A DNA stretch of 64,000 nt from contig JAFTCA010000013.1 of NCBI GenBank assembly GCA_017454945.1, positions 60,505 to 124,504 of the forward strand, read 5' to 3'. Within the stretch, counting starts at the first letter, position 1; each line of letters begins with the position of its first letter. Positions 11,864 to 63,225 of the stretch are shown piece by piece. The notes under the pieces were generated by a model. It was not told the origin of the DNA and ran no database searches. It saw only the letters and a list, made by a program, of their open reading frames with translations. The DNA comes from Bacteroidales bacterium. Its GTDB lineage: Bacteria; Bacteroidota; Bacteroidia; Bacteroidales; WCHB1-69. A program made the translations under genes and the position numbers.

Positions 11864-13087
11864 ATGTATATACCATTCTCACCGCCTCGCATTGATGACC
11901 GCACCATAGAAGAGGTGACTGCGGCGCTCAGGTCGGGGTGGATAACTACGGGGCCACGTACCAAAAAACTGGAAAAAATGATTGCCGACTATTGCCATGT
12001 GCCACAGGTACTCTGTGTCAGTTCGGCCTCAGCCGGCTTGGAGCTGATGCTGCACTGGTTCGGTGTAAAGGAAGGTGACGAGGTGATTGTGCCGGCTTAC
12101 ACTTATTGTGCAACGGCCAATGTGGTAGTGCATTGCGGTGCCACACCCGTGATGGTGGATGTGAACGACGACTTCCTGATTAATGTGGAGAATATCCGTA
12201 AGGCTATTACTCCGCGCACCAAGGTGGTGATACCCGTTGATATTGCAGGCTATCCGTGTGATTATGAGTTGATTAATGCGTTGGTTGCCGAGCCGGAAGT
12301 GCGAGCCCTGTTCCAGCCTCAAACGCCCGAACAGCATCAGTTGGGTCGCATTCTGGTGCTATCCGATGCAGCCCATTCCATTGGAGCTCAGTATCATGGC
12401 CGCAAGACGGGCAGCCTTACCGATGTGTCGGTGTTCTCGTTCCATGCGGTGAAGAACCTGACCACGGCCGAAGGTGGAGCCATCTGCCTCAATTTGCCTG
12501 CTCCTTTTGATTTGGAAGCGTTGTATAAATATTTATGTACAAAATCATTACACGGGCAGTCGAAGGATGCGTTGGCCAAAACTCAGATTGGCAACTGGCG
12601 CTACGATGTGCTCGAGGCGGGCTACAAGTGCAATATGACCGATGTGCTGGCAGCTATTGGCTTAGTGGAGATGGAACGTTATGAAGAGGATATGCTGCCA
12701 CGCCGTAAGGCTATCTTTAATGCTTATACTGAGGCGTTTAAGGATGATGAACGCTTTCAGGTTCCCGAATACGAGACGGCGCAAAGAGTCTCCTCGTACC
12801 ATGTTTATCCTTTGCGTATAAAAAATATTACAGAGGTGCAGCGCGATGCCATTATGCAAGCTATTTTTAAACGTGAAGTGTCTGTAAATGTGCATTTTAT
12901 TCCTCTGCCTATGCTGACTTGCTACAAGAATATGGGCTATAAGATAGAGGATTATCCCGTGGCGTACGACAACTACTCGCGCGAGATCAGTTTGCCCGTA
13001 TATTACAATCTCACCGACGAGCAAGTGGCGTTTGTGATAGATGCGGTTAAAGCGGCAGTGGAGGTAGAAGTGAAAACTGAAAATTGA
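11864..13087 (+). CDS. DegT/DnrJ/EryC1/StrS-family PLP-dependent sugar aminotransferase
   Basis: Family-typical N-terminus and the PLP-lysine context FSFHAVKNLTTAEGGAI. The stop codon lies inside a GAAAACTGAAAATT tandem array. Confidence 0.85.
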   Translation: MYIPFSPPRIDDRTIEEVTAALRSGWITTGPRTKKLEKMIADYCHVPQVLCVSSASAGLELMLHWFGVKEGDEVIVPAYTYCATANVVVHCGATPVMVDVNDDFLINVENIRKAITPRTKVVIPVDIAGYPCDYELINALVAEPEVRALFQPQTPEQHQLGRILVLSDAAHSIGAQYHGRKTGSLTDVSVFSFHAVKNLTTAEGGAICLNLPAPFDLEALYKYLCTKSLHGQSKDALAKTQIGNWRYDVLEAGYKCNMTDVLAAIGLVEMERYEEDMLPRRKAIFNAYTEAFKDDERFQVPEYETAQRVSSYHVYPLRIKNITEVQRDAIMQAIFKREVSVNVHFIPLPMLTCYKNMGYKIEDYPVAYDNYSREISLPVYYNLTDEQVAFVIDAVKAAVEVEVKTEN

Positions 13088-13100
13088 AAACTGAAAATTG
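13072..13100. repeat. Tandem array, 2 x GAAAACTGAAAATT
   Basis: Read directly. Contains the aminotransferase stop codon (13085-13087). Confidence 0.9.
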
Positions 13101-29500: not shown

Positions 29501-29737
29501 AAAATTCGCGTAAATCCGTGCGATCCGCGGCCAAAATATCTCCGCGAATCTGACGAAACCGCATGGAGATAATTTGCGAAAAATAAACCTCATGCAATAT
29601 CAATAGTCTAAATATCGTTTTTTCAATAAAATATTCGCTTATAGTGTTTCGTTTAAAAAAAAAACGTATATTTGCTGCGCTTTTAAAGAAAGGTAATTCA
29701 AAGAAAACATATTATTAATTCAAAAACAAAAAAGATT

Positions 29738-30385
29738 ATGAAAGCTGTAAAATTTTTATTCATGGCATTAATTGCTTGCTCTTTATTAACGGCATGCAAA
29801 GACAAGGAACCCGAGCCAGAACCCAATCCTGGCCCTGCTGCCGGTGTGTTCAAATGTACCTTCGGTGAACAAGATTGGACCGTAAAAACTACCGATTGCG
29901 GTATTGTTGAAAGCAATGGTGACCAATGTGTGTTTGTGAATGCTTCACCTAACGATTTTTCAGAGCTGCCTATTCTTTATTTCATGATTAAAGCAGAAAC
30001 AGGTCGTCACATGGCATCCACCGACCCTCATTTGTTTATGATGTATTATAAGTCAACTGCATTTAACCTGAATTATAATGGTCAGCTGCTTCAGAACTTA
30101 GGTGACTATTGGGCTGGTAACGGTCCTCTACCTATGGGTACTATCAATATTGAAATCACCTCTTTAGATGTTAATACCTTGAAGGTAACCATGAAGGGTT
30201 CAGGCACTTGCTGGGGTGCTCGTGAATACATTGCAGCATACAACGAAGGTAGAGAAGACATTGTTCCGTTGGATTTCAATTTCGAGGCCAATGAAGTTAC
30301 TCTCACTCGTCGTGCAACCAAGAGCTTGTCTCCTATGACTCAAGTGGCAATGCAAGCAACTGAAACACTTACTCTTACCAAATAA
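29738..30385 (+). CDS. Lipoprotein, unknown function
   Basis: Lipobox LLTAC followed by a Pro/Glu linker (KDKEPEPEPNPGPAAG). A terminator hairpin follows. Confidence 0.55.
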   Translation: MKAVKFLFMALIACSLLTACKDKEPEPEPNPGPAAGVFKCTFGEQDWTVKTTDCGIVESNGDQCVFVNASPNDFSELPILYFMIKAETGRHMASTDPHLFMMYYKSTAFNLNYNGQLLQNLGDYWAGNGPLPMGTINIEITSLDVNTLKVTMKGSGTCWGAREYIAAYNEGREDIVPLDFNFEANEVTLTRRATKSLSPMTQVAMQATETLTLTK

Positions 30386-30404
30386 GAACAACTAACCAAC
30401 ATAC

Positions 30405-30437
30405 AAAGACGGGGTAGCAATATCCCGTCTTTTTTTA
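30405..30437 (+). terminator. Rho-independent terminator
   Basis: GACGGG...CCCGTC stem followed by T7, after the stop at 30385. Confidence 0.7.
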
Positions 30438-30452
30438 TGGAAGAATATTAAA

Positions 30453-31133
30453 ATGGAACAAATTGCATTTTGGGGCATCCCTTTGATATACTGGCTGTTG
30501 GTGGCGGCGTTCGTATTGCCTAAAATACCCTATGTTGGCAAGTTTTTCAATGTCATCAACACGGGTGTCCACGAGCTGGGACATGCGCTCATGGCGCTTG
30601 TTTTGCAAGGGCAAGTGCTCAAAATCGAGCTGTTTGGCGACACGTCAGGTGCTGCCGTCACCAAGTCGGCCAACCGCTTTACGGCGATGCTGGTCTCTTT
30701 GAGCGGCTATCTGTTTGCTTCTGCAGTGGCCTATCTGGCCTTCTATCTCATCCATGTCGGCTATGTGCAGCATTTTATCATTGGCTTGTCGCTGGTATTC
30801 CTGCTGATGCTAATTCTGTGGGTGCGCAACTGGTTCGGCGTTATTTGGGTGGTGCTGTTCGTTGCCTTGAACGGCTTCCTGATTTATTACGGTAATACAT
30901 TGTATATCAATATCGCTGCGCTGTTCTATGGCGTCATGATTCTCATCGAGTCGGTATGGTCCACGTTGGTGGTGCTTTTTTTGTCGATAGTAAATCCCGA
31001 TGCCGCAGGAGACGCCGCCAACTTGAAAAAGCAAACTCATGTGCCCGCCTTCATCTGGGCCCTGCTGTTTGTGGCTTTCGCGGGCTTTGTCGCCTATAAA
31101 GTGGTGGTGGAGTATCTGTGGCCTTTGTTCTGA
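30453..31133 (+). CDS. M50B-like membrane metallopeptidase family protein
   Basis: HELGHAL zinc motif in the first cytoplasmic loop of a 6-TM protein. Confidence 0.6.
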   Translation: MEQIAFWGIPLIYWLLVAAFVLPKIPYVGKFFNVINTGVHELGHALMALVLQGQVLKIELFGDTSGAAVTKSANRFTAMLVSLSGYLFASAVAYLAFYLIHVGYVQHFIIGLSLVFLLMLILWVRNWFGVIWVVLFVALNGFLIYYGNTLYINIAALFYGVMILIESVWSTLVVLFLSIVNPDAAGDAANLKKQTHVPAFIWALLFVAFAGFVAYKVVVEYLWPLF

Positions 31134-31140
31134 ATAAAGA

Positions 31141-31168
31141 TTTTAGTTGTTAGTTTTTAGTTGTTAGA
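31141..31168. repeat. TTAGTTG-word array; left inverted arm of four-helix-bundle cassette 1
   Basis: 31143-31167 is the exact reverse complement of 31530-31554 (checked base by base). Confidence 0.95.
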
Positions 31169-31178
31169 AAAAGTTTTT

Positions 31179-31547
31179 ATGATGAAATCAAGTGATTATA
31201 AACAATTGAAAGTGTGGCAGAAAGCAATTGATTTGACGGTGGAGGTGTATAAGATTGTCAAGTATCTGCCAAAAGAAGAAACGTATGTGTTGTCAGATCA
31301 GATGCGAAGAGCGGTGGTTTCAATACCCTCCAATATCGCAGAAGGTCAGGGGCGAAATTCACGCAAGGAATTTCAGAATTTTTTATCTATAGCACGAGGG
31401 TCTTTGTGGGAGTTGGGAACTCAAATCGAAATTTGTGAACGCTTGGGCTACTTAAATAATCCTCAAACGACTAAAGTCCATGAACTAACCATGGAGATTG
31501 GAAAAATGCTCAATGCCCTCTCAAATTCTCTAACAACTAAAAACTAA
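31179..31547 (+). CDS. Four-helix-bundle protein (23S rRNA intervening-sequence protein / Avd family), copy 1
   Basis: Family signature YKQLKVWQKA...LPKEE...L.DQMRRA.VSIPSNIAEGQGR...EF..FL.IARGS..EL.TQ. Bracketed by inverted arms at 31143-31168 and 31529-31554. Confidence 0.8.
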   Translation: MMKSSDYKQLKVWQKAIDLTVEVYKIVKYLPKEETYVLSDQMRRAVVSIPSNIAEGQGRNSRKEFQNFLSIARGSLWELGTQIEICERLGYLNNPQTTKVHELTMEIGKMLNALSNSLTTKN

Positions 31548-31560
31548 CAACTAACAACTA
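31529..31560. repeat. CTAACAA-word array; right inverted arm of cassette 1
   Basis: Exact complement of the left arm over 25-26 nt. Overlaps the last codons and the stop of the ORF. Confidence 0.95.
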
Positions 31561-31567
31561 ATATTGC

Positions 31568-31575
31568 TATTTTTG
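31568..31575 (+). promoter_or_regulatory. Bacteroidota -7 promoter box
   Basis: TATTTTTG, 27 nt upstream of the ATG at 31602. Confidence 0.45.
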
Positions 31576-31601
31576 TACCATTAAACTAAAAAATATAACT
31601 C

Positions 31602-32171
31602 ATGTCTTATTTCGTTCACGAATCGTCGTATGTAGATGAGGATTGCCTTATTGGTGAAGGCACCAAGATTTGGCATTTCTCGCATATCATGTCACATTGC
31701 CGTATTGGCAAAAACTGCAATATTGGTCAGAATGTGGTCATCTCACCCGAAGTGGTGCTTGGCAATAACGTGAAGATACAGAACAATGTATCTGTCTATA
31801 CGGGTGTTACTTGCGATGACGATGTTTTCCTTGGCCCCTCTATGGTATTCACCAATGTGATTAATCCGCGCAGTGCCGTCTGCCGCAAAGACCAGTACGC
31901 ACGCACGCATGTGGGCAAGGGGGCTTCCATTGGAGCCAATGCCACTGTGGTCTGCGGACACAATATCGGACGCTACGCTTTCATTGGAGCCGGTGCCGTT
32001 GTGACCAAAGATGTGCCCGATTACGCCCTGATGGTGGGAAATCCCGCCGTCCAGGTCGGCTGGATGAGCGAGTACGGCTGCAAACTTGCTTTCAACGAGA
32101 ACGGCGAGGCCGTTTGTCCTGAAAGCGGCGAAAAGTACCGACTGACAGAAGGGAAGGTTGTTAGACTTTAG
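31602..32171 (+). CDS. Left-handed beta-helix (hexapeptide-repeat) sugar N-acetyltransferase, WbpD/FdtC-like
   Basis: Hexapeptide repeats throughout ([26 protein letters not shown], ...), 189 aa. TATTTTTG box at 31568. Confidence 0.8.
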
Positions 32172-32195
32172 GCATTAGACTTTAGACGTTAGACG
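32161..32195. repeat. TTAGACT-word array; left inverted arm of cassette 2
   Basis: About 31 of 35 positions are complementary to the 32560-32597 array (longest perfect run 13 nt). Overlaps the acetyltransferase stop. Confidence 0.85.
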
Positions 32196-32208
32196 GTAAT
32201 GTGAAAAT

Positions 32209-32577
32209 ATGAAATCAAGTGATTATAAACAGTTAAAAGTATGGCAGAAGGCGATGGATTTGACTGTAGAAGTTTATGATCTTATCAAGAAATTGCCGAA
32301 AGAAGAAAATTATGGATTGTCCGACCAGATGCGCAGATCGGTTGTTTCTATTCCTTCTAATATTGCGGAAGGACAAGGAAGAAATTCGGATAGAGAATTT
32401 GTGAATTTTTTATCTATAGCAAGAGGTTCTCTTTGGGAATTGGAAACCCAACTGGAGATATGTAAAAGACTAGGATATATTGACAACAATCAAATGTCGA
32501 ATGCTTTTGTTTTAACAACAGAAATTAGCAAAATGATTAATTCATTATCAAAAACCCTGCTAAAGTCTAAAGTCTAA
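32209..32577 (+). CDS. Four-helix-bundle protein (23S rRNA IVS protein / Avd family), copy 2
   Basis: About 70% identical to copy 1 by eye and carries the same signature. The C-terminal residues LLKSKV are encoded by the CTAAAGT array. Confidence 0.8.
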   Translation: MKSSDYKQLKVWQKAMDLTVEVYDLIKKLPKEENYGLSDQMRRSVVSIPSNIAEGQGRNSDREFVNFLSIARGSLWELETQLEICKRLGYIDNNQMSNAFVLTTEISKMINSLSKTLLKSKV

Positions 32578-32597
32578 AGTCTAAAGTCTAAAGTCTA
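32560..32597. repeat. CTAAAGT x5 tandem array; right inverted arm of cassette 2
   Basis: Read directly. Overlaps the 3' ends of both the four-helix-bundle ORF (+) and the rhomboid gene (-). Confidence 0.95.
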
Positions 32598-33253
32598 TCT
32601 ATATCCTCTAAGCCTTCTACATCCTCTAAATCCTCTTCTTCCCAAACATATTCTTTCTTTTGTGGGCCTTCATTCCTATAGAAAAAGGCAAGTATCACTC
32701 CTGTGATAGCGCCTGCCAGATGGCCTTCCCAAGAAATGAACTTGTCGGGGAAGAGCGATGGAAAGAATCCCCATACAATACTCCCGTATAAAAATATGAT
32801 AATCAATGTGTAAGCCATGAGGTGCTCTTCCATTTTCAAAATGGAGATAGTGACCAGGAAGAAAGCCTGTGCGTACACCATGCCGCTGGCACCGATATGT
32901 ACGCCTGACGAGGCTATCACCCATGTGAGGATGCCCGATATCAGGTAGTGCATAAGGAGTATGAGAAACGCTTTGTTGCGGAAGAAATAGAAAAGACCGA
33001 ATAGCAGGAAGAATAGCGGTAGGCTGTTGGAAAACAGGTGCTCGTAGTCGGCATGCAGGAAGGGCAGGGTGAATATGCCTACGAGGCCCGATAATTCGCG
33101 CGGACGCACTCCAAAGTCGTTCCAATTAAGCATGAACACATGGTTGAGAATAAAAGCCAGCCAGATTAATCCGATAATTATAAGTGACTGAGCAATAGCT
33201 AAATAAAACCTATGTTTTTCAAACAGACGCTCTTCCATGGACGTGGGTATCAA
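32588..33253 (-). CDS. Rhomboid-family intramembrane serine protease
   Basis: GASGMVYA (GxSG) in TM4 and HLAGAITG (His) in TM6. Confidence 0.75.
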   Translation of the reverse strand: MIPTSMEERLFEKHRFYLAIAQSLIIIGLIWLAFILNHVFMLNWNDFGVRPRELSGLVGIFTLPFLHADYEHLFSNSLPLFFLLFGLFYFFRNKAFLILLMHYLISGILTWVIASSGVHIGASGMVYAQAFFLVTISILKMEEHLMAYTLIIIFLYGSIVWGFFPSLFPDKFISWEGHLAGAITGVILAFFYRNEGPQKKEYVWEEEDLEDVEGLEDIDRL

Positions 33254-33323
33254 ATTGGACTCTTTTCCACTGCAATTTTAATCTTTTTTTCGAATAAAAA
33301 TGCAGAAGCCATCCACCGTTCGA

Positions 33324-34244
33324 CTAATTGTCTTTGTAATGTTCGCACGGGGTGCCTTCCATTTCCAATTCGAGTGTAACGTGGCTTATGCCAATATGTT
33401 CCAGTTGGTGTCTCAGATCATGTTTGATGGCTTCGGCTTTGGTGAAGTCGCGGATGACCACATGGGCAGTCATGGCATTTTCGGTCGTGCTCAGTGCCCA
33501 TACATGCAGGTGATGGCACTCCACCACATCGGGATGTGAGTTCATAATTTGGCTTACGGTGTCAAAATCAACATCTTCGGGCACGCCGTCAAGCGAGAGG
33601 CGTAAGCTTTGGCGGAGCAGCTGCCAGGTGGAAATCATAATGATGACGGCAACAATGAGTCCTATGATAGGGTCAATGACGTACCAGTCTGTGAAATAGA
33701 TGACAATGCCTGAAAGTACCACACCAATCGAAACCAAGGCGTCGGCAGCCATGTGAAGGTAAGCCCCCTTTACGTTCAAATCGCGTTCTTTGTCTTTCAT
33801 GAACAGCCAGGCAGTCAGCCCGTTGACAATAACTCCAACAGCGGCCACCCAAGCAATGGTACTTCCTGCTACCTCTACAGGGGCGATAAGTTTGTGAATA
33901 CTCTCGGCCATGATGACACCAACAGCCACCAATAGCAAGACAGCATTAAGTAAAGAGACCAGTATTGTGCTTTTTTTTAATCCGTAAGTATATCTTTTTG
34001 AAGTGTTTACTCTTAACAGACGGAAGGCTAATAGAGCCAAAACGAGGCTGGCAATGTCGGTTAGGTTGTGCCCTGCATCCGACAAGAGTCCCATAGAGTG
34101 AGAATATAACCCAAAGCCAAATTCCACCAGCACATATATGATATTCAATGAAATACCTATAATAAACGCCCGATTCAGCGACGAAGCATCTATTTCATGC
34201 TCATGATGATGGTGGTGGTGGTGATGTTCGTGATGTTCTGCCAT
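33324..34244 (-). CDS. CDF-family divalent-cation efflux transporter (CzcD/ZitB-like) with His-rich N-terminus
   Basis: MAEHHEHHHHHHHHEHE leader, HSMGLLSDAGHNLTD and HMAADALVS motifs. Start set at the ATG at 34244; the track's upstream extension runs through the word array. Confidence 0.85.
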   Translation of the reverse strand: MAEHHEHHHHHHHHEHEIDASSLNRAFIIGISLNIIYVLVEFGFGLYSHSMGLLSDAGHNLTDIASLVLALLAFRLLRVNTSKRYTYGLKKSTILVSLLNAVLLLVAVGVIMAESIHKLIAPVEVAGSTIAWVAAVGVIVNGLTAWLFMKDKERDLNVKGAYLHMAADALVSIGVVLSGIVIYFTDWYVIDPIIGLIVAVIIMISTWQLLRQSLRLSLDGVPEDVDFDTVSQIMNSHPDVVECHHLHVWALSTTENAMTAHVVIRDFTKAEAIKHDLRHQLEHIGISHVTLELEMEGTPCEHYKDN

Positions 34245-34261
34245 GGCTAAATGATGATAGT

Positions 34262-34388
34262 GGTTAAGAAGTTCAGAAACTAAGGGGTTAAGAGGGTGTG
34301 AAGGATTAAATGAATAGTGAACAGTGAAGGAACTAAGTAGCAATGTATTTGTTCTTTGTTCTTGAATTTGAATTTTGAATTCTGAATT
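34262..34388. repeat. Composite word array (GTTAAGAA / AACTAAG / AGTGAAnn / TTGTTCT / TTGAATT)
   Basis: Fills almost the whole spacer between the permease stop and the CDF start. Confidence 0.85.
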
Positions 34389-35621
34389 TTATTCTTCCTT
34401 TTTTCCATTATACTCAAAACCAATCTCTTCCACGGCTTTTTTTACGGCTTCGTCGTCAGGGGTGCCAGTGACGATGGCGAGATTGTGTCCAAGATCCACT
34501 TCCACTTTAGTTACACCATCCAGTTGGCTGATGGCTTTTTCGACCGACATTTTGCAGTGGTTGCAGCTCATGCCGCCGATTTGATAGATAATTTGGTCTT
34601 TGTTCATAGTTGTTTTGTTTTTTTTGTATTTTAAAATGAAAGCATTTGCTAAGAGGAGTACAAAGATACCACAAAAAATCATTTGTGAGACGGAGGGCCA
34701 CTGTGTGGTGTGGCAGCAGGCGTGATCAATGAAAGCGGGCATAAACCAGGATGCGGGCAGCAGATAGTCGACCACGATGCCGCCTGCGAGCGCACCGATG
34801 ATAATAGAAGCCATGTAGCATATCAGATTCTTGCGTCCCAGTGTTTTGCCGATTATCAGTATGTTGGCGATGCTGGCAGCCGGTCCGGCAACCAGAAATA
34901 CCAAGGCTGTGCCGGGAGTTAACCCCTTAAGTATCAGAGCTGCCGCAATAGGAATTGACCCCATGGTGCACACATACATAGGTATGGCAATGACCAACAC
35001 CAGCATCATCATGACAATAGGAGGCAGGTTCAGTGAGGCAAAGAAGTTGTCAGGCACGAAAACGGTAATCAGCGCACCTAATGCCAAACCGATAATAAGC
35101 CACTTGCCGATGTTTTGGAACATCTCAATAAAGCTGTAATATAGTAAATCCTTGATTTTCTGTCCGAAAGATCTCTTTTCAACATGCTTGGATGTGTTGT
35201 TATGCACCACAATCTCATCTTTCGAGAATTGTGCTGTAACGCAGCCGCCCGCCAATCCTGTAATGAGCGCTACCACGGGACGCAGAATAGCGAAGGGTAG
35301 GCCCAACATGGAGTAAGTGGCAATAATGGAATCGACACCCGTTTGCGGGGTGGCAATCATAAAGGCAACCGTGGCACCTCGCGAAGCGCCGTCTCTGCGC
35401 AGAGAGACCGCCGTGGGAATAACACCGCACGAACATAGTGGTAGGGGAATGCCTAACAGCGTGGCCCATAGCACCGATTTGAAGTTTTCCTGACCGAGAT
35501 ATTTCTCAAAAACACCTTGAGGCACAAAAACATGCAAGATGCCAGCAATGAGAAAGCCTATCATCAGATAGGGGGCCATTTCGCATAACATGCTGAAAAA
35601 TGAGAAGAGGATGGAGGACAT
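34389..35621 (-). CDS. Permease (DUF318/ArsP-like; SO_0444-type Cu/Zn efflux family) fused to a C-terminal heavy-metal-associated domain
   Basis: Polytopic permease with LPLCSCGVIP, plus a C-terminal HMA fold carrying GMSCNHC. Confidence 0.7.
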   Translation of the reverse strand: MSSILFSFFSMLCEMAPYLMIGFLIAGILHVFVPQGVFEKYLGQENFKSVLWATLLGIPLPLCSCGVIPTAVSLRRDGASRGATVAFMIATPQTGVDSIIATYSMLGLPFAILRPVVALITGLAGGCVTAQFSKDEIVVHNNTSKHVEKRSFGQKIKDLLYYSFIEMFQNIGKWLIIGLALGALITVFVPDNFFASLNLPPIVMMMLVLVIAIPMYVCTMGSIPIAAALILKGLTPGTALVFLVAGPAASIANILIIGKTLGRKNLICYMASIIIGALAGGIVVDYLLPASWFMPAFIDHACCHTTQWPSVSQMIFCGIFVLLLANAFILKYKKNKTTMNKDQIIYQIGGMSCNHCKMSVEKAISQLDGVTKVEVDLGHNLAIVTGTPDDEAVKKAVEEIGFEYNGKKEE

Positions 35622-35630
35622 GACGGTGAA

Positions 35631-35750
35631 TCGTTTAATTGTTGAAGTGTTGAAGTGTTGAAGTGAATAGTGAGAAGTGAGGAGTGAATAGTGAGCAGTG
35701 AGATGAAAGTTAAGAAGTTAAGGAACTAAGAAGTTAAGTGTTGTTGAGTT
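35631..35750. repeat. Composite word array (TTGAAGTG x3, AGTGAnn xN, GTTAAGAA/AACTAAG xN, GTTGTTGA)
   Basis: Read directly. Same word order as the array at 58587-58675. Confidence 0.9.
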
Positions 35751-35759
35751 GTTTGTGTC

Positions 35760-35805
35760 ATTCCGAGACGGTGGTTGAGCCTATCGAAAATGCCGTCGAA
35801 GGAAT
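35760..35805. repeat. Imperfect hairpin element embedded between word arrays
   Basis: ATTCCgaGACGG - 21 nt - CCGTCgaaGGAAT. Confidence 0.6.
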
Positions 35806-35807
35806 CT

Positions 35808-35926
35808 CTTTGAATTTTGAATTTTTATATTTGTTCTTTGTTCTCTGGATTTTGTTCTTTATTATGCATCGTGCATTGTGAATTATGAATTTGTTCTCTG
35901 TTCTTTGTCCTTTGAATTTTGAATTT
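35808..35926. repeat. Composite word array (TTGAATTT / TTGTTCT / TGTGAATT), bounded by 17-nt direct repeats CTTTGAATTTTGAATTT
   Basis: Read directly. Ends at the stop codon of the Cys-rich small ORF. Confidence 0.85.
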
Positions 35927-38466: not shown

Positions 38467-38537
38467 TTTAGTTGTTAGTCTTTAGTTTTTAGTTGTTAGA
38501 TAATCTATCTAATTATAAATTATTAATTGTACATTGT
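38467..38537. repeat. TTAGTTG-word array followed by TAATTGT/ATAAATT words
   Basis: Same word family and orientation as 31141-31168. Lies between the porin stop and the feoAB start. Confidence 0.85.
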
Positions 38538-58586: not shown

Positions 58587-58710
58587 TCGTTTAAATGTTG
58601 AAGTGAGAAGTGAGTGGTGAGTAGTGAATTGAGTTAAGAAACTAAGGAGTTAAGAGTTATAGAGTTGTTGAAATGGGTCCTTTTAATTGTAAATTATTAA
58701 TTGTCAATTA
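58587..58710. repeat. Composite word array homologous to 35631-35750, followed by AATTGTA-type words
   Basis: Shares TCGTTTAA(A/T)TGTTGAAGTG, AGAAGTGAG, GTTAAGAA, AACTAAG(G/A)AGTTAAG and GTTGTTGA in the same order. Confidence 0.85.
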
Positions 58711-59886
58711 TCTATTTAGCTTATTGTACGTTCTCCACCACCTGTCAGGAATTTTGTCTGTGCAGGCGGTCTCGTAATCTTTACGAGAGCAGGGGAGAAG
58801 ATATTGTTGTTCAGTGTCTTTCTTCAGGTTAATAACGGGCACTACCATCCACCAACGTTCTGTTTTTTTGCTACGGTAGAATACCAATTCGCTCGTGGCC
58901 TCGCTGACCGACACACTGTATTTGAAGTAATTATCTTTCTGTTTGAAGTTAAGGTCGTCTTGGCGATGGCTGTATCCCTCAACAAAGTACCACAAGATAT
59001 GGCTTATCAACTGAGAGGTTTGGTTGTTGTAATCCATCGTAGGGTCGTACTCGTAAATGCCGAAGGAGGAGAGCTTGTCATTCAAGCCGGCATAACTCGA
59101 CACCTGACAGATTTCCTCGCCGTAAAAACCGTTGGATGAGGCGTTTGGGTTGCCTGGCGCATCCACACGACGAACGGCGGAGATATCCAACGCCAGCAGA
59201 TCGGCATTGCGCACAATCGGCTCTACATCTTCCATATCCTTGCGCAGCATGCCCACACGGTAAGTCTCGAAATAGAGTTGCTGCATTAAATCGATATCTT
59301 CAGGACTGTTAAGATAAGTCTGATAACCCACATTAGCAAAATTGAGCAAGCAGTTGGGCTGCTGCATGATAATCTTGTTCAGATAGCCGTCCGAAGTGAT
59401 GGTATTCTCGTCGTCGCCCAGGTCAAAGCGCGAATCCACAACCACCATATTGACAATTTTGTTCAGTTTGGCGTAGGCCAAATAATTGGCGTAAGCCAAA
59501 TCGTTGGTGCCACCCAGAATAATTGGAATAACCTTATTTTCAATTAAATGGGCGATAATACTTGCCACAACCTCGTAGGTATCCTCAATTTCCTTGCCAG
59601 GAATCAGATTGCCCAAATCAAGAATTCTGACGGGCTTTTTCCAACTGAAAAGACGGTAAAATTGCCGGCGAATCTCATCGGGAGCCAGCGCTGCAGATGG
59701 GTTGTTGCGACTGTTTCGCGACTCGGGAACACCCATAATGGCCATGTCGAACCCCGACAATGAAGGCTCTTCATCCTCCGCTGTCTGGAATAAAACAGTG
59801 TTGATCAGGTAAGCCGGATTCTGATAGTTGTCGTTAAAACCTAACGAATCAAAATCAACAGGAGTGAAGTAGGGCTTTAGTTCCAT
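58708..59886 (-). CDS. Arginase/formimidoylglutamase-fold protein with divergent metal-ligand motifs and an extra C-terminal domain
   Basis: Ureohydrolase-fold motif order is conserved (ILGGTNDLAYA; VVVDSRFDLG; LLALDISAVRRVDAPG) but canonical GGDHS / DAHxD / DxDxxDP ligands are substituted. Confidence 0.65.
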   Translation of the reverse strand: MELKPYFTPVDFDSLGFNDNYQNPAYLINTVLFQTAEDEEPSLSGFDMAIMGVPESRNSRNNPSAALAPDEIRRQFYRLFSWKKPVRILDLGNLIPGKEIEDTYEVVASIIAHLIENKVIPIILGGTNDLAYANYLAYAKLNKIVNMVVVDSRFDLGDDENTITSDGYLNKIIMQQPNCLLNFANVGYQTYLNSPEDIDLMQQLYFETYRVGMLRKDMEDVEPIVRNADLLALDISAVRRVDAPGNPNASSNGFYGEEICQVSSYAGLNDKLSSFGIYEYDPTMDYNNQTSQLISHILWYFVEGYSHRQDDLNFKQKDNYFKYSVSVSEATSELVFYRSKKTERWWMVVPVINLKKDTEQQYLLPCSRKDYETACTDKIPDRWWRTYNKLNR

Positions 59887-61788: not shown

Positions 61789-61824
61789 TAATTCACAATT
61801 CACAATTCATAATGCACAATTAAG
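61789..61824. repeat. AATTCACA-word array
   Basis: Starts 1 nt after the GT2 stop. Reverse complement of the TGTGAATT words at about 35870. Confidence 0.85.
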
Positions 61825-63194: not shown

Positions 63195-63225
63195 GAAATT
63201 CAGAATTCAAAGTTCAAAATTCAAA
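63195..63225. repeat. (A/G)AATTCA-word array
   Basis: Reverse-complement orientation of the TTGAATT words. Abuts the 15-bp hairpin at 63225. Confidence 0.8.

Follow-up and report, generated by a model that had tools for sequence, protein, structure and literature searches.

Two PF05635 genes within inverted heptamer arrays in a Bacteroidales genome: probable copies of a widespread insertion cassette resembling rRNA intervening sequences

A 64,000-nt stretch of a Bacteroidales genome (contig JAFTCA010000013.1; hereafter the window) contains two genes of the PF05635/TIGR02436 family, here called cassette 1 and cassette 2 together with the pair of inverted, tandemly repeated heptamer arrays that encloses each of them. 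We put at about 0.6 the probability that both are copies of a widespread insertion cassette, in which a ~120-aa PF05635 gene lies within inverted heptamer arrays in the manner of the intervening sequences (IVSs) of rRNA, and whose terminal stem is cut by RNase III. Together the arrays and the enclosed open reading frame (ORF) make up a discrete DNA segment, found at some orthologous sites and missing from others; it has ORF-less miniatures, and it lands in spacers beside or between genes as well as inside ORFs. Its nature as an insertion, and as an IVS-type cassette residing outside rRNA, is well supported by the comparisons reported here, in which L numbers denote the compared loci, W the window locus and L081 an otherwise identical metagenome contig.

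Two PF05635 genes and their heptamer arms

Both ORFs score far above the family cut-offs (143.4 and 149.5 bits for Pfam, cut-off 33.8; 136.7 and 146 bits for TIGR02436, cut-off 24) and are homologous to the solved pentameric four-helix bundles PDB 2GSC (E=2.8e-24) and 2RLD (E=4.8e-9). The RxxxSxxxNxxE motif conserved in this protein (Zhang 2013, PMC3936711) occurs in both as RRAVVSIPSNIAEG. Their products are identical at 88 of 117 positions, that is 75% rather than the ~70% given in a preliminary description of the window. The PF05635 gene is the sole ORF of each cassette, and no further copy was found in the window. Profile searches revealed no transposase domain in the cassette ORFs, PADLOC returned no defence-system match for the cassette protein, and an Rfam scan of the window yielded a single tRNA, with no rRNA and no RNA family at the arms.

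The arms of cassette 1 pair at 26/26 positions in their core (31143-31168 with 31529-31554), which bears out the exact 25-nt inverted repeat, extending to 26 bp, of the preliminary description; over the 34 nt of the extended arms (31138-31171 with 31526-31559) complementarity is 91%. Cassette 2 is likewise enclosed, as had been described, by a different pair of words, complementary at 30/33 positions over 33 nt (32162-32194 with 32565-32597). All four arms are tandem arrays of period 7 (TTAGTTG x3.6, CTAACAA x4.6, TTAGACT x4.9 and CTAAAGT x5.4). Variant units are mirrored in order between the two arms of cassette 1, and cassette 2 represents a minority core variant, TTAGACT, whose unit type recurs in an unrelated set of cassettes (encoding protein P0011, unit TTAGACN). 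Stop codons lie within the arms for both cassette ORFs, for the acetyltransferase gene (TAG, 32169-32171) and for the rhomboid gene (32588-32590); the overlap that had been claimed for the neighbouring genes does not extend to the M50B peptidase gene, the stop codon of which (31131-31133) falls just outside the core arm of cassette 1. The preliminary description overlooked the conserved AGT core of the arms and their nature as heptamer arrays, as well as the presence of similar solo arrays at other places in the window. The coordinates of these features are compiled in Table 1.

Table 1. Positions of the two cassettes, their neighbors and further arrays in the window
Feature	Position	Strand	Remarks
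M50B-like peptidase gene, host gene 5' of cassette 1	30453-31133	+	
Cassette 1 5' arm, TTAGTTG/TTAGTTT tandem heptamers, AGT-core type	31138-31171	+	Begins 5 nt past the M50B stop codon
Cassette 1 ORF, PF05635/TIGR02436 four-helix-bundle protein, 121 aa	31182-31547	+	PF05635 E=3.3e-42; alternative ATG at 31179
Cassette 1 3' arm, (CTAACAA)n, complementary to the 5' arm	31526-31561	+	Includes the stop codon of the cassette 1 ORF
TATTTTTG, match to the Bacteroidetes -7 consensus TAnnTTTG	31568-31575	+	27 nt ahead of the acetyltransferase ATG
Hexapeptide-repeat acyltransferase (acetyltransferase) gene, between the cassettes	31602-32171	+	
Cassette 2 5' arm, (TTAGACT)n plus variant units	32157-32195	+	First unit codes the final codons and stop of the acetyltransferase
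Cassette 2 ORF, PF05635/TIGR02436 protein, 122 aa	32209-32577	+	PF05635 E=4.3e-44
Cassette 2 3' arm, perfect (CTAAAGT)x5.4	32560-32597	+	Holds the cassette ORF stop and, on the opposite strand, the rhomboid stop
Rhomboid-family gene, convergent, beyond cassette 2	32588-33253	-	
Solo array of TTAGTTG, TTAGTCT, TTAGTTT, TTAGTTG and TTAGA, in this order	38467-38500	+	Near copy of the cassette 1 5' arm
Period-7/8 array sites	2394-2538, 34348-34390, 35640-35738, 35809-35926, 58590-58711, 61790-61821, 63196-63225		

Inverted heptamer arms are a property of the family

One homologue search gave thousands of close relatives of the cassette protein, and a metagenome scan supplied 80 loci with homologues at 49-77% identity. 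The score of a pair of arms was that of the best inverted match, without gaps, of the 130 nt upstream of the ORF to the ORF tail plus the 130 nt downstream. The score was at least 14 in 57 of 76 cassettes and at least 18 in 43 of 76, with a median of 18.5. When arms of different cassettes were paired with one another the median fell to 8 and 13% reached at least 14, and none reached 14 in a reversed-only control, so that chance is excluded. Within the same loci, inverted arms of at least 14 accompany 54/73 PF05635 genes versus 4/126 other ORFs (Fisher p=2e-27); since three of these four ORFs proved to be PF05635 genes themselves, one genuine case remains among ~123, and matching inverted arms are thus enriched ~70-fold at PF05635 genes.

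Arm autocorrelation is 0.80 at period 7 versus 0.21-0.34 at other periods. The upstream unit reads AGT followed by four variable bases in 49 of 55 cassettes (AGTGGTC, AGTTTTC, AGTGGGC and AGTAGCC, among others), and the downstream arm is complementary to it. The unit varies among cassettes, yet the two arms of any one cassette match, which amounts to covariation at the level of the family; this feature and the flanking inverted words themselves, both of which the preliminary description had proposed to look for in family members, are therefore general properties of these loci. The polarity is fixed, with the G/T-rich arm (10% C) 5' of the ORF. The stem fits closely around the ORF: the gap between the left arm and the ATG has a median of 28 nt, and the right arm covers the stop codon in 28/65 cassettes. 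Array length varies: the left array comprises 5-11 units among samples L180-L189, in which the encoded protein (P0011) is identical. An Rfam scan of the 80 related cassettes and their loci placed none of them within rRNA and detected no RNA family at the arms.

The signature also recurs, with differing units, across three phyla. Inverted arrays, mostly of period 7, flank PF05635 genes on plasmids of Nostoc, Calothrix, Anabaena, Geminocystis, Stanieria and Riemerella (units AGTAGGG, AGGGAAC, GGGTGTA, ACAGGTG, AAAGGGA and CAGAGGG), while Pseudanabaena and Gemmatirosa cassettes have direct arrays on both sides. Plasmid cassettes adjoin or split familiar gene units, namely nrdB/nrdA, where the cassette lies on the strand opposite to the flanking genes, cas6/cas4, cas10/cmr3, and an AAA ATPase gene/parB. 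The Xanthomonas homologue, which belongs to the XCC0516 family (crystal structure PDB 2GSC) and is located between accB and accC, was examined as a test of the prediction: it has inverted arms of GGGAATC type, complementary at 26/30 positions, with variant units mirrored in order. This very heptamer, GGGAATC, is highly enriched in Xanthomonas according to an earlier study, which counted ~186 sites with 70-75 inverted pairs among them and assigned it neither a function nor a tie to the PF05635 gene (Rehm 2015, PMC4692102).

Filled, empty and ORF-less sites

The spacer between the TraM and T4CP genes of Nostoc plasmids was found in four states. It is empty, 52 nt long and devoid of arrays, in two loci (L174, L178); it is filled with array-ORF-array in two others (L165, L177); in L176 the AGGGAAC arms are the same, and they enclose a ~130-nt center without an ORF; and L175 holds an independent ORF-less element with GGCAGAG arms, inserted 27 nt further on, which belongs to a dispersed family with eight near-full copies of 70-83% identity on other Nostoc plasmids. 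The nrdB/nrdA site, similarly, is filled in Nostoc edaphicum (L162) and empty, without arrays, in Calothrix NIES-4105 (L179). Since empty sites lack arrays, array-ORF-array behaves as one discrete insertion.

Orthologues of the window locus were retrieved through exact-protein look-ups; an acetyltransferase scan of genome contigs produced only matches of at most 79% identity and no orthologous locus. Both cassettes are present in W and L081 (M50B identity 100%). In L190/L191, whose cassette protein is 86% identical, cassette 1 is present and cassette 2 is absent from L190, its site lying outside the coverage of L191; L194 (M50B identity 84%) also has cassette 1 and lacks cassette 2. Neither cassette occurs in L192/L193 (90%) or L196 (75%), so that cassette 2 was found only in W/L081 among the compared relatives. 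At the cassette 2 site L190 retains a shortened left array and one right-arm unit without an ORF, and in L192/L193 the spacer between the M50B and acetyltransferase genes carries, in place of cassette 1, another small element with TTTGAAT/TTGTTCT arrays. Presence/absence polymorphism is thereby established for each window cassette, and the idea of the preliminary description that these are hairpin-bounded ORF cassettes inserted as discrete units is upheld by the filled, empty and ORF-less states of orthologous sites.

These data bear on the possibility that the arms are coincidental simple-sequence repeats, produced by polymerase slippage in AT-rich spacers, with ordinary genes caught between arrays by chance. 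The many period-7/8 arrays in window spacers and the hypervariable copy number among strains would suit such an origin, which we nevertheless regard as very improbable in view of the ~70-fold enrichment at PF05635 genes, the recurrence in three phyla with different units and the absence of arrays from empty orthologous sites.

Two ways in which the arms might have arisen were also considered. That they were copied from the target site was rejected as a general mechanism: the empty TraM and nrd sites hold nothing resembling a unit, and the unrelated P0011 set shares TTAGACN with cassette 2, the unit of which overlaps the native V-R-L-stop codons of the acetyltransferase. The mirrored units of cassette 1 and Xanthomonas do not accord with a telomere-like synthesis in which each end is made independently; unmirrored units would accord with it.

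Some further differences were observed around cassette 2. The window (32588-34343 region) and L190 have the rhomboid gene on the - strand, L192 (4883-5554) and L194 (5329-6003) have it on the + strand, and the cation-efflux gene (33324-34343) is absent from L192 and L194; together these point to local rearrangement beside cassette 2. The ArsP/HMA permease gene at 34389-35621 is one ORF of 410 aa in the window and is called as two genes (207 + 206 aa) in L081 (9938-11199).

Selection on the protein and on the arms

Among orthologous cassette 1 ORFs dN/dS is 0.12-0.14, and between the two cassette ORFs of the window it is 0.04. A 28-nt core of the left arm of cassette 1 is invariant in three species (W, L190, L194) despite an ORF dS of 0.5-0.65, the spacer from this arm to the ATG varies freely among the same orthologues, and the right arm keeps its unit while its copy number is 4.5, 6 or ~10. 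These substitution patterns indicate that the cassette protein and the left arm of cassette 1 are under purifying selection in this lineage. The low dN/dS values (0.04-0.14) argue that the protein is functional, unlike the decaying ORF of the Coxiella IVS described below.

RNA folding, transcription and a proposed mode of processing

In RNA folds of both cassettes the arms form the closing stem of the minimum free energy and the centroid structures, with z-scores of -3.0 and -5.9, and none of 100 shuffled sequences folded as well; the arms are therefore the dominant closing stem, a point that the preliminary description had proposed to check. This closing stem is retained in all three cassette 1 orthologues.

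Sigma-70 promoter and terminator scans are uninformative for Bacteroidota, in which the -7 promoter consensus is TAnnTTTG. The element TATTTTTG at 31568-31575 is the sole + strand match to this consensus within 29667-33887 and is conserved as TATCTTTG/TATTTTTG in L190, L194 and L192; it is probably the promoter of the acetyltransferase host gene, situated just outside cassette 1. With this box separating cassette 1 from the acetyltransferase gene, it is likelier that each cassette follows a single host gene than that it divides one transcript, and as neither window cassette has a TAnnTTTG box of its own, each is probably carried on its upstream host gene's transcript. The ordinary operon in which the preliminary description had embedded both cassettes is accordingly to be qualified: they do sit behind host genes, and a promoter-like box separates cassette 1 from the gene that follows.

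The best-studied relative of these elements is the IVS of Coxiella. IVSs with an S23p (PF05635) ORF interrupt the 23S rRNA of Coxiella burnetii and Leptospira and are seen as selfish or horizontally acquired; in Coxiella three to four tandem GACAGAT heptamers, in strain-variable number, precede the ATG, a 28-bp terminal stem closes the element, RNase III cleavage has been mapped inside this stem, and the ORF is in decay and, it appears, not translated (Warrier et al. 2016, PMC4990558). The window cassettes share with it a homologous ORF, a closing stem formed by terminal inverted repeats, and tandem heptamers of variable number in the 5' arm, and differ in following protein-coding genes instead of lying in rRNA and in the strong purifying selection on their ORF. 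This common build of ORF, heptamers and stem identifies the window elements as IVS-type cassettes outside rRNA, and the analogy with rRNA IVSs is stronger than the preliminary description had claimed, because the Coxiella element, too, has 5'-arm heptamers and a stem cut by RNase III (PMC4990558). With all sequence features of the Coxiella IVS shared except its location in rRNA, the most economical reading, and the one we infer, is that RNase III would also process the window cassettes.

We propose that each window cassette would owe its transcription to read-through out of the host gene directly before it (the M50B peptidase gene and the acetyltransferase gene, respectively). The arms would then pair as a 26-33 bp stem closing off the ORF, and RNase III would cut this stem as it does in rRNA IVSs, which would release the cassette RNA or insulate it from the host transcript, so that the insertion would do little harm. 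The cassette protein may act on the heptamer arrays, which is a guess.

Several observations weigh against this interpretation. The arms of the orthologue L190 pair less well (19 vs 26), and variant units are often unmirrored between arms (cassette 2, L141); both suggest that complementarity may stem from a process at the DNA level, by which it would be made or refreshed, and not from selection on an RNA stem. In sense RNA, mismatches between arms show no excess of G·U-compatible pairs (74 of G·U type vs 98 of A·C type). About one quarter of the family's cassettes have no good inverted repeat, and in a few (L163, L168) the arrays on either side are direct. No target-site duplication was seen at the TraM, nrd and acetyltransferase junctions, where divergence of the sites could hide a short one, and the compared junctions display no conserved end motif and no transposase. 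Several sorts of heptamer array are frequent in this genome's spacers where no PF05635 gene is present. Finally, stem cleavage of the cassettes nested in methyltransferase genes would destroy the mRNA of these genes, yet several nested cassettes retain good arms.

Cassettes nested in methyltransferase genes

Sixteen PF05635 cassettes, comprising 12 of the 80 from metagenomes (L092, L094, L097, L106, L108, L115, L127, L128, which has two in one ORF, L146, L149 and L152) and those of 4 of 5 viral-contig loci (L199-L202), are nested in very long ORFs of Eco57I/PglX-like methyltransferases, recognizable by the motifs DPACGSGH, NLHGIDIDPRAVQ and DNVIP..DDIV..RF. The methyltransferase frame (+2 relative to PF05635) is open across the whole cassette, the arms being translated as linkers with a 7-aa period, and the points of insertion number at least three. 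In L201 a second, divergent PF05635 gene (2514-2903) follows right after the stop codon of the cassette-bearing methyltransferase gene, and the C terminus of its product (SAQINQKSAIKNQKS) has a periodic look, such as a tandem array might produce.

Relation to other repeats and elements

The period-7 arms have counterparts among free-standing arrays. Bacterial heptamer repeats have been known since 1990, and like the cassette arms they are intergenic tandem arrays of 7-nt units in at least three copies. Those of the cyanobacterial STRR, the TAACTGA and the GGGAATC/GGGGAYT types, which occupy spacers of Cyanobacteria, Bacteroidetes and Xanthomonas, further resemble the arms in the inverted pairs of Xanthomonas and in an A/C-rich strand that is often sense just upstream of start codons; the papers describing them treat the arrays as free-standing and of unknown function, with no tie to PF05635 genes (PMC4679880, PMC4692102). 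TAACTGA arrays precede start codons in Beggiatoaceae, Cyanobacteria and Bacteroidetes (MacGregor 2015, PMC4679880).

One solo array in the window closely resembles an arm. The array at 38467-38500 matches the 5' arm of cassette 1 over 26 nt at 92% and over 19 nt exactly, and may be related to it; on the - strand it lies upstream of feoB, at 8 nt from the start codon. In this and the three other solo arrays of AGT/ACT type (13071-13100, 35662-35703 and 58600-58627) the A/C-rich (ACT) strand is sense upstream of the next gene start, in 4/4 cases, which is the bias that MacGregor reported for TAACTGA repeats (PMC4679880). Window spacers are rich in other word arrays of period 7 or 8 (GAAGTGA, GTTAAGAA, AATTGTA, TTTGAAT, TTTGTTC, AATTCAC), and two mutually homologous array blocks precede the - strand genes that start at 35621 and 58544. 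In relatives (L192) arrays of (TTTGAAT)n place repeated TTTG motifs ahead of TAnnTTTG boxes. At 35754-35808 a hairpin element of ~50 nt (CATTCCGAGACGGTGG...GCCGTCGAAGGAATC; -17 kcal/mol) precedes TTTGAAT/TTTGTTC arrays; a look-alike, judged by eye, lies in the M50B-acetyltransferase spacer of L192 (4185-4240), from which cassette 1 is absent. Short-query BLAST did not recover the look-alike, and the hairpin has no Rfam match.

Two other settings were noted. The P0011 cassette (L180-L189) forms part of a larger unit that opens with a conserved module, GGTGACACGGGGACAGGTTCTTGTCAC..., which lies ~110 nt upstream of the left array and is sometimes duplicated; a Fic-domain gene usually follows, and a Cas12-like RuvC/NUC gene, a possible tRNA end (by eye) or a PAD_porph gene variously precede. 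On plasmid pNe_5 of Nostoc edaphicum (L207, 28109-28189) an ORF-less inverted pair, (GGGGAAG)n/(CCTTTCC)n with ~17 nt between, forms a bare hairpin in the style of cassette arms.

Avd (bAvd), the DGR accessory protein, belongs to the same fold superfamily, and the cassette proteins give weak matches to PF22296 and NF033474, the latter at 40.3 and 36.8 bits, under the equivalog cut-off of 80. No reverse transcriptase (RVT) domain was found among the called genes of the L081 locus, where no search was aimed at template and variable repeats (TR/VR), and we know of no report of Avd genes bounded by heptamer arrays.

MITEs, which are transposable elements of miniature size with inverted repeats, and the Foldback elements of eukaryotes, in which the terminal inverted repeats are made of short tandem repeats, also invite comparison. 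In common with both, the cassettes have terminal inverted repeats, presence/absence at orthologous sites and dispersed ORF-less derivatives, and in common with Foldback elements these repeats consist of tandem arrays, longer at one end than at the other; they differ in that no transposase or target-site duplication was seen and that the arm sequence is not common to copies.

A REPtron consists of a RAYT transposase gene between inverted repetitive extragenic palindromic (REP) sequences, and the cassettes resemble it in comprising a small gene between inverted short repeats. Dispersal of the flanking repeat in spacers of the same genome is seen for GGGAATC in Xanthomonas and for the feoB array in the window, and is not evident on 150 kb of the Nostoc plasmid pNe_5. 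The cassette protein is a four-helix bundle rather than a Y1/HUH transposase, no such domain being present in the cassette ORFs; the repeats are tandem heptamers rather than a single palindromic REP; and paralogous cassettes of one genome use different units. The likeness nonetheless suggests an alternative, which we consider possible and rather doubtful, in which the protein binds, maintains or spreads heptamer arrays throughout the genome, its gene lies between inverted cognate arrays and the RNA stem is incidental. Such a role would account for the use of the genome-wide GGGAATC unit in the Xanthomonas arms (~186 sites, 70-75 inverted pairs; PMC4692102), the almost arm-identical solo array before feoB, the dispersal of ORF-less array pairs, the strong purifying selection on the protein and the conserved polarity of the arms relative to the ORF. 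It is at odds with the plain four-helix bundle of PDB 2GSC, which has no nuclease or recombinase fold; and on the 150 kb of pNe_5, a plasmid with three cassettes, the only seven period-7 arrays show no clear match to cassette units. No recognition code is apparent either: proteins 75-77% identical have different units, and a code linking protein to unit, which we considered, is unlikely for this reason.

Alternatively, the cassette might be an immobile, domesticated cis-regulatory device whose stem serves the host genes, acting on the upstream gene as 3' stabilizer, terminator, insulator or substrate of RNase III retroregulation, or as a leader mask covering the A/C-rich leader of the downstream gene. 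The maintenance of cassette 1 at one site across species with an invariant left arm, the position of cassette 2 between convergent genes, and the sense A/C-rich arrays that closely precede start codons, both in the window and in published cases (PMC4679880), are in keeping with such a device. We hold it to be unlikely, given that close relatives (L192, L196) have neither cassette, that the same cassette type occurs in unrelated contexts (cas operons, nrdAB, accBC, parAB, inside ORFs) and that conservation of the ORF would be left unexplained.

The family has been met before in several contexts. 23S_rRNA_IVP genes were noted between cmr2/cmr3 and beside cas4/cas6 (Zhang et al. 2013, PMC3936711), a clustering study of 2023 listed the family among CRISPR-linked domains, and a study of the candidate phyla radiation (CPR) found its ORF inside 16S and 23S insertions. 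The reported association with CRISPR-cas may simply reflect insertion between cas genes (cas6/cas4, cas10/cmr3; L163, L167, L172). A full-text literature search found PF05635 genes nowhere tied to flanking inverted heptamer arrays, the Coxiella detail excepted. The preliminary description, which knew of no account of IVS-like cassettes embedded in mRNA, had missed that the heptamer detail is already published for Coxiella (PMC4990558). We have thus found no description of a tie between the PF05635 family and flanking heptamer arrays beyond this detail.

Conclusions

Among families without an assigned function, PF05635/TIGR02436 ranks with the largest in Bacteroidota and Cyanobacteria, and it now has a defining genomic signature. 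This signature joins three literatures, those on rRNA intervening sequences, on bacterial heptamer repeats and on the CRISPR-cas 'association' of the family. A bolder view, which we offer tentatively and think on the unlikely side, is that PF05635 cassettes are the ORF-bearing 'master' form of heptamer-repeat families (STRR, TAACTGA, GGGAATC), constituting a new foldback-type class of mobile elements with a protein that recognizes or propagates the arrays. If so, solo arrays and ORF-less inverted pairs would be footprints or miniatures of cassettes, and one cassette type would live in rRNA, between cistrons, or nested in the alternative frame of methyltransferase genes; the REPtron-like alternative would, if true, be the more novel outcome. 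Under the IVS-type reading that we favor, the arms are long double-stranded RNA stems and hypervariable repeats beside host genes, which bears on annotation, operon prediction and expression studies. The nature of IVS elements and of their ORF becomes testable, as tractable organisms carry cassettes in well-known operons such as accB-accC of Xanthomonas.

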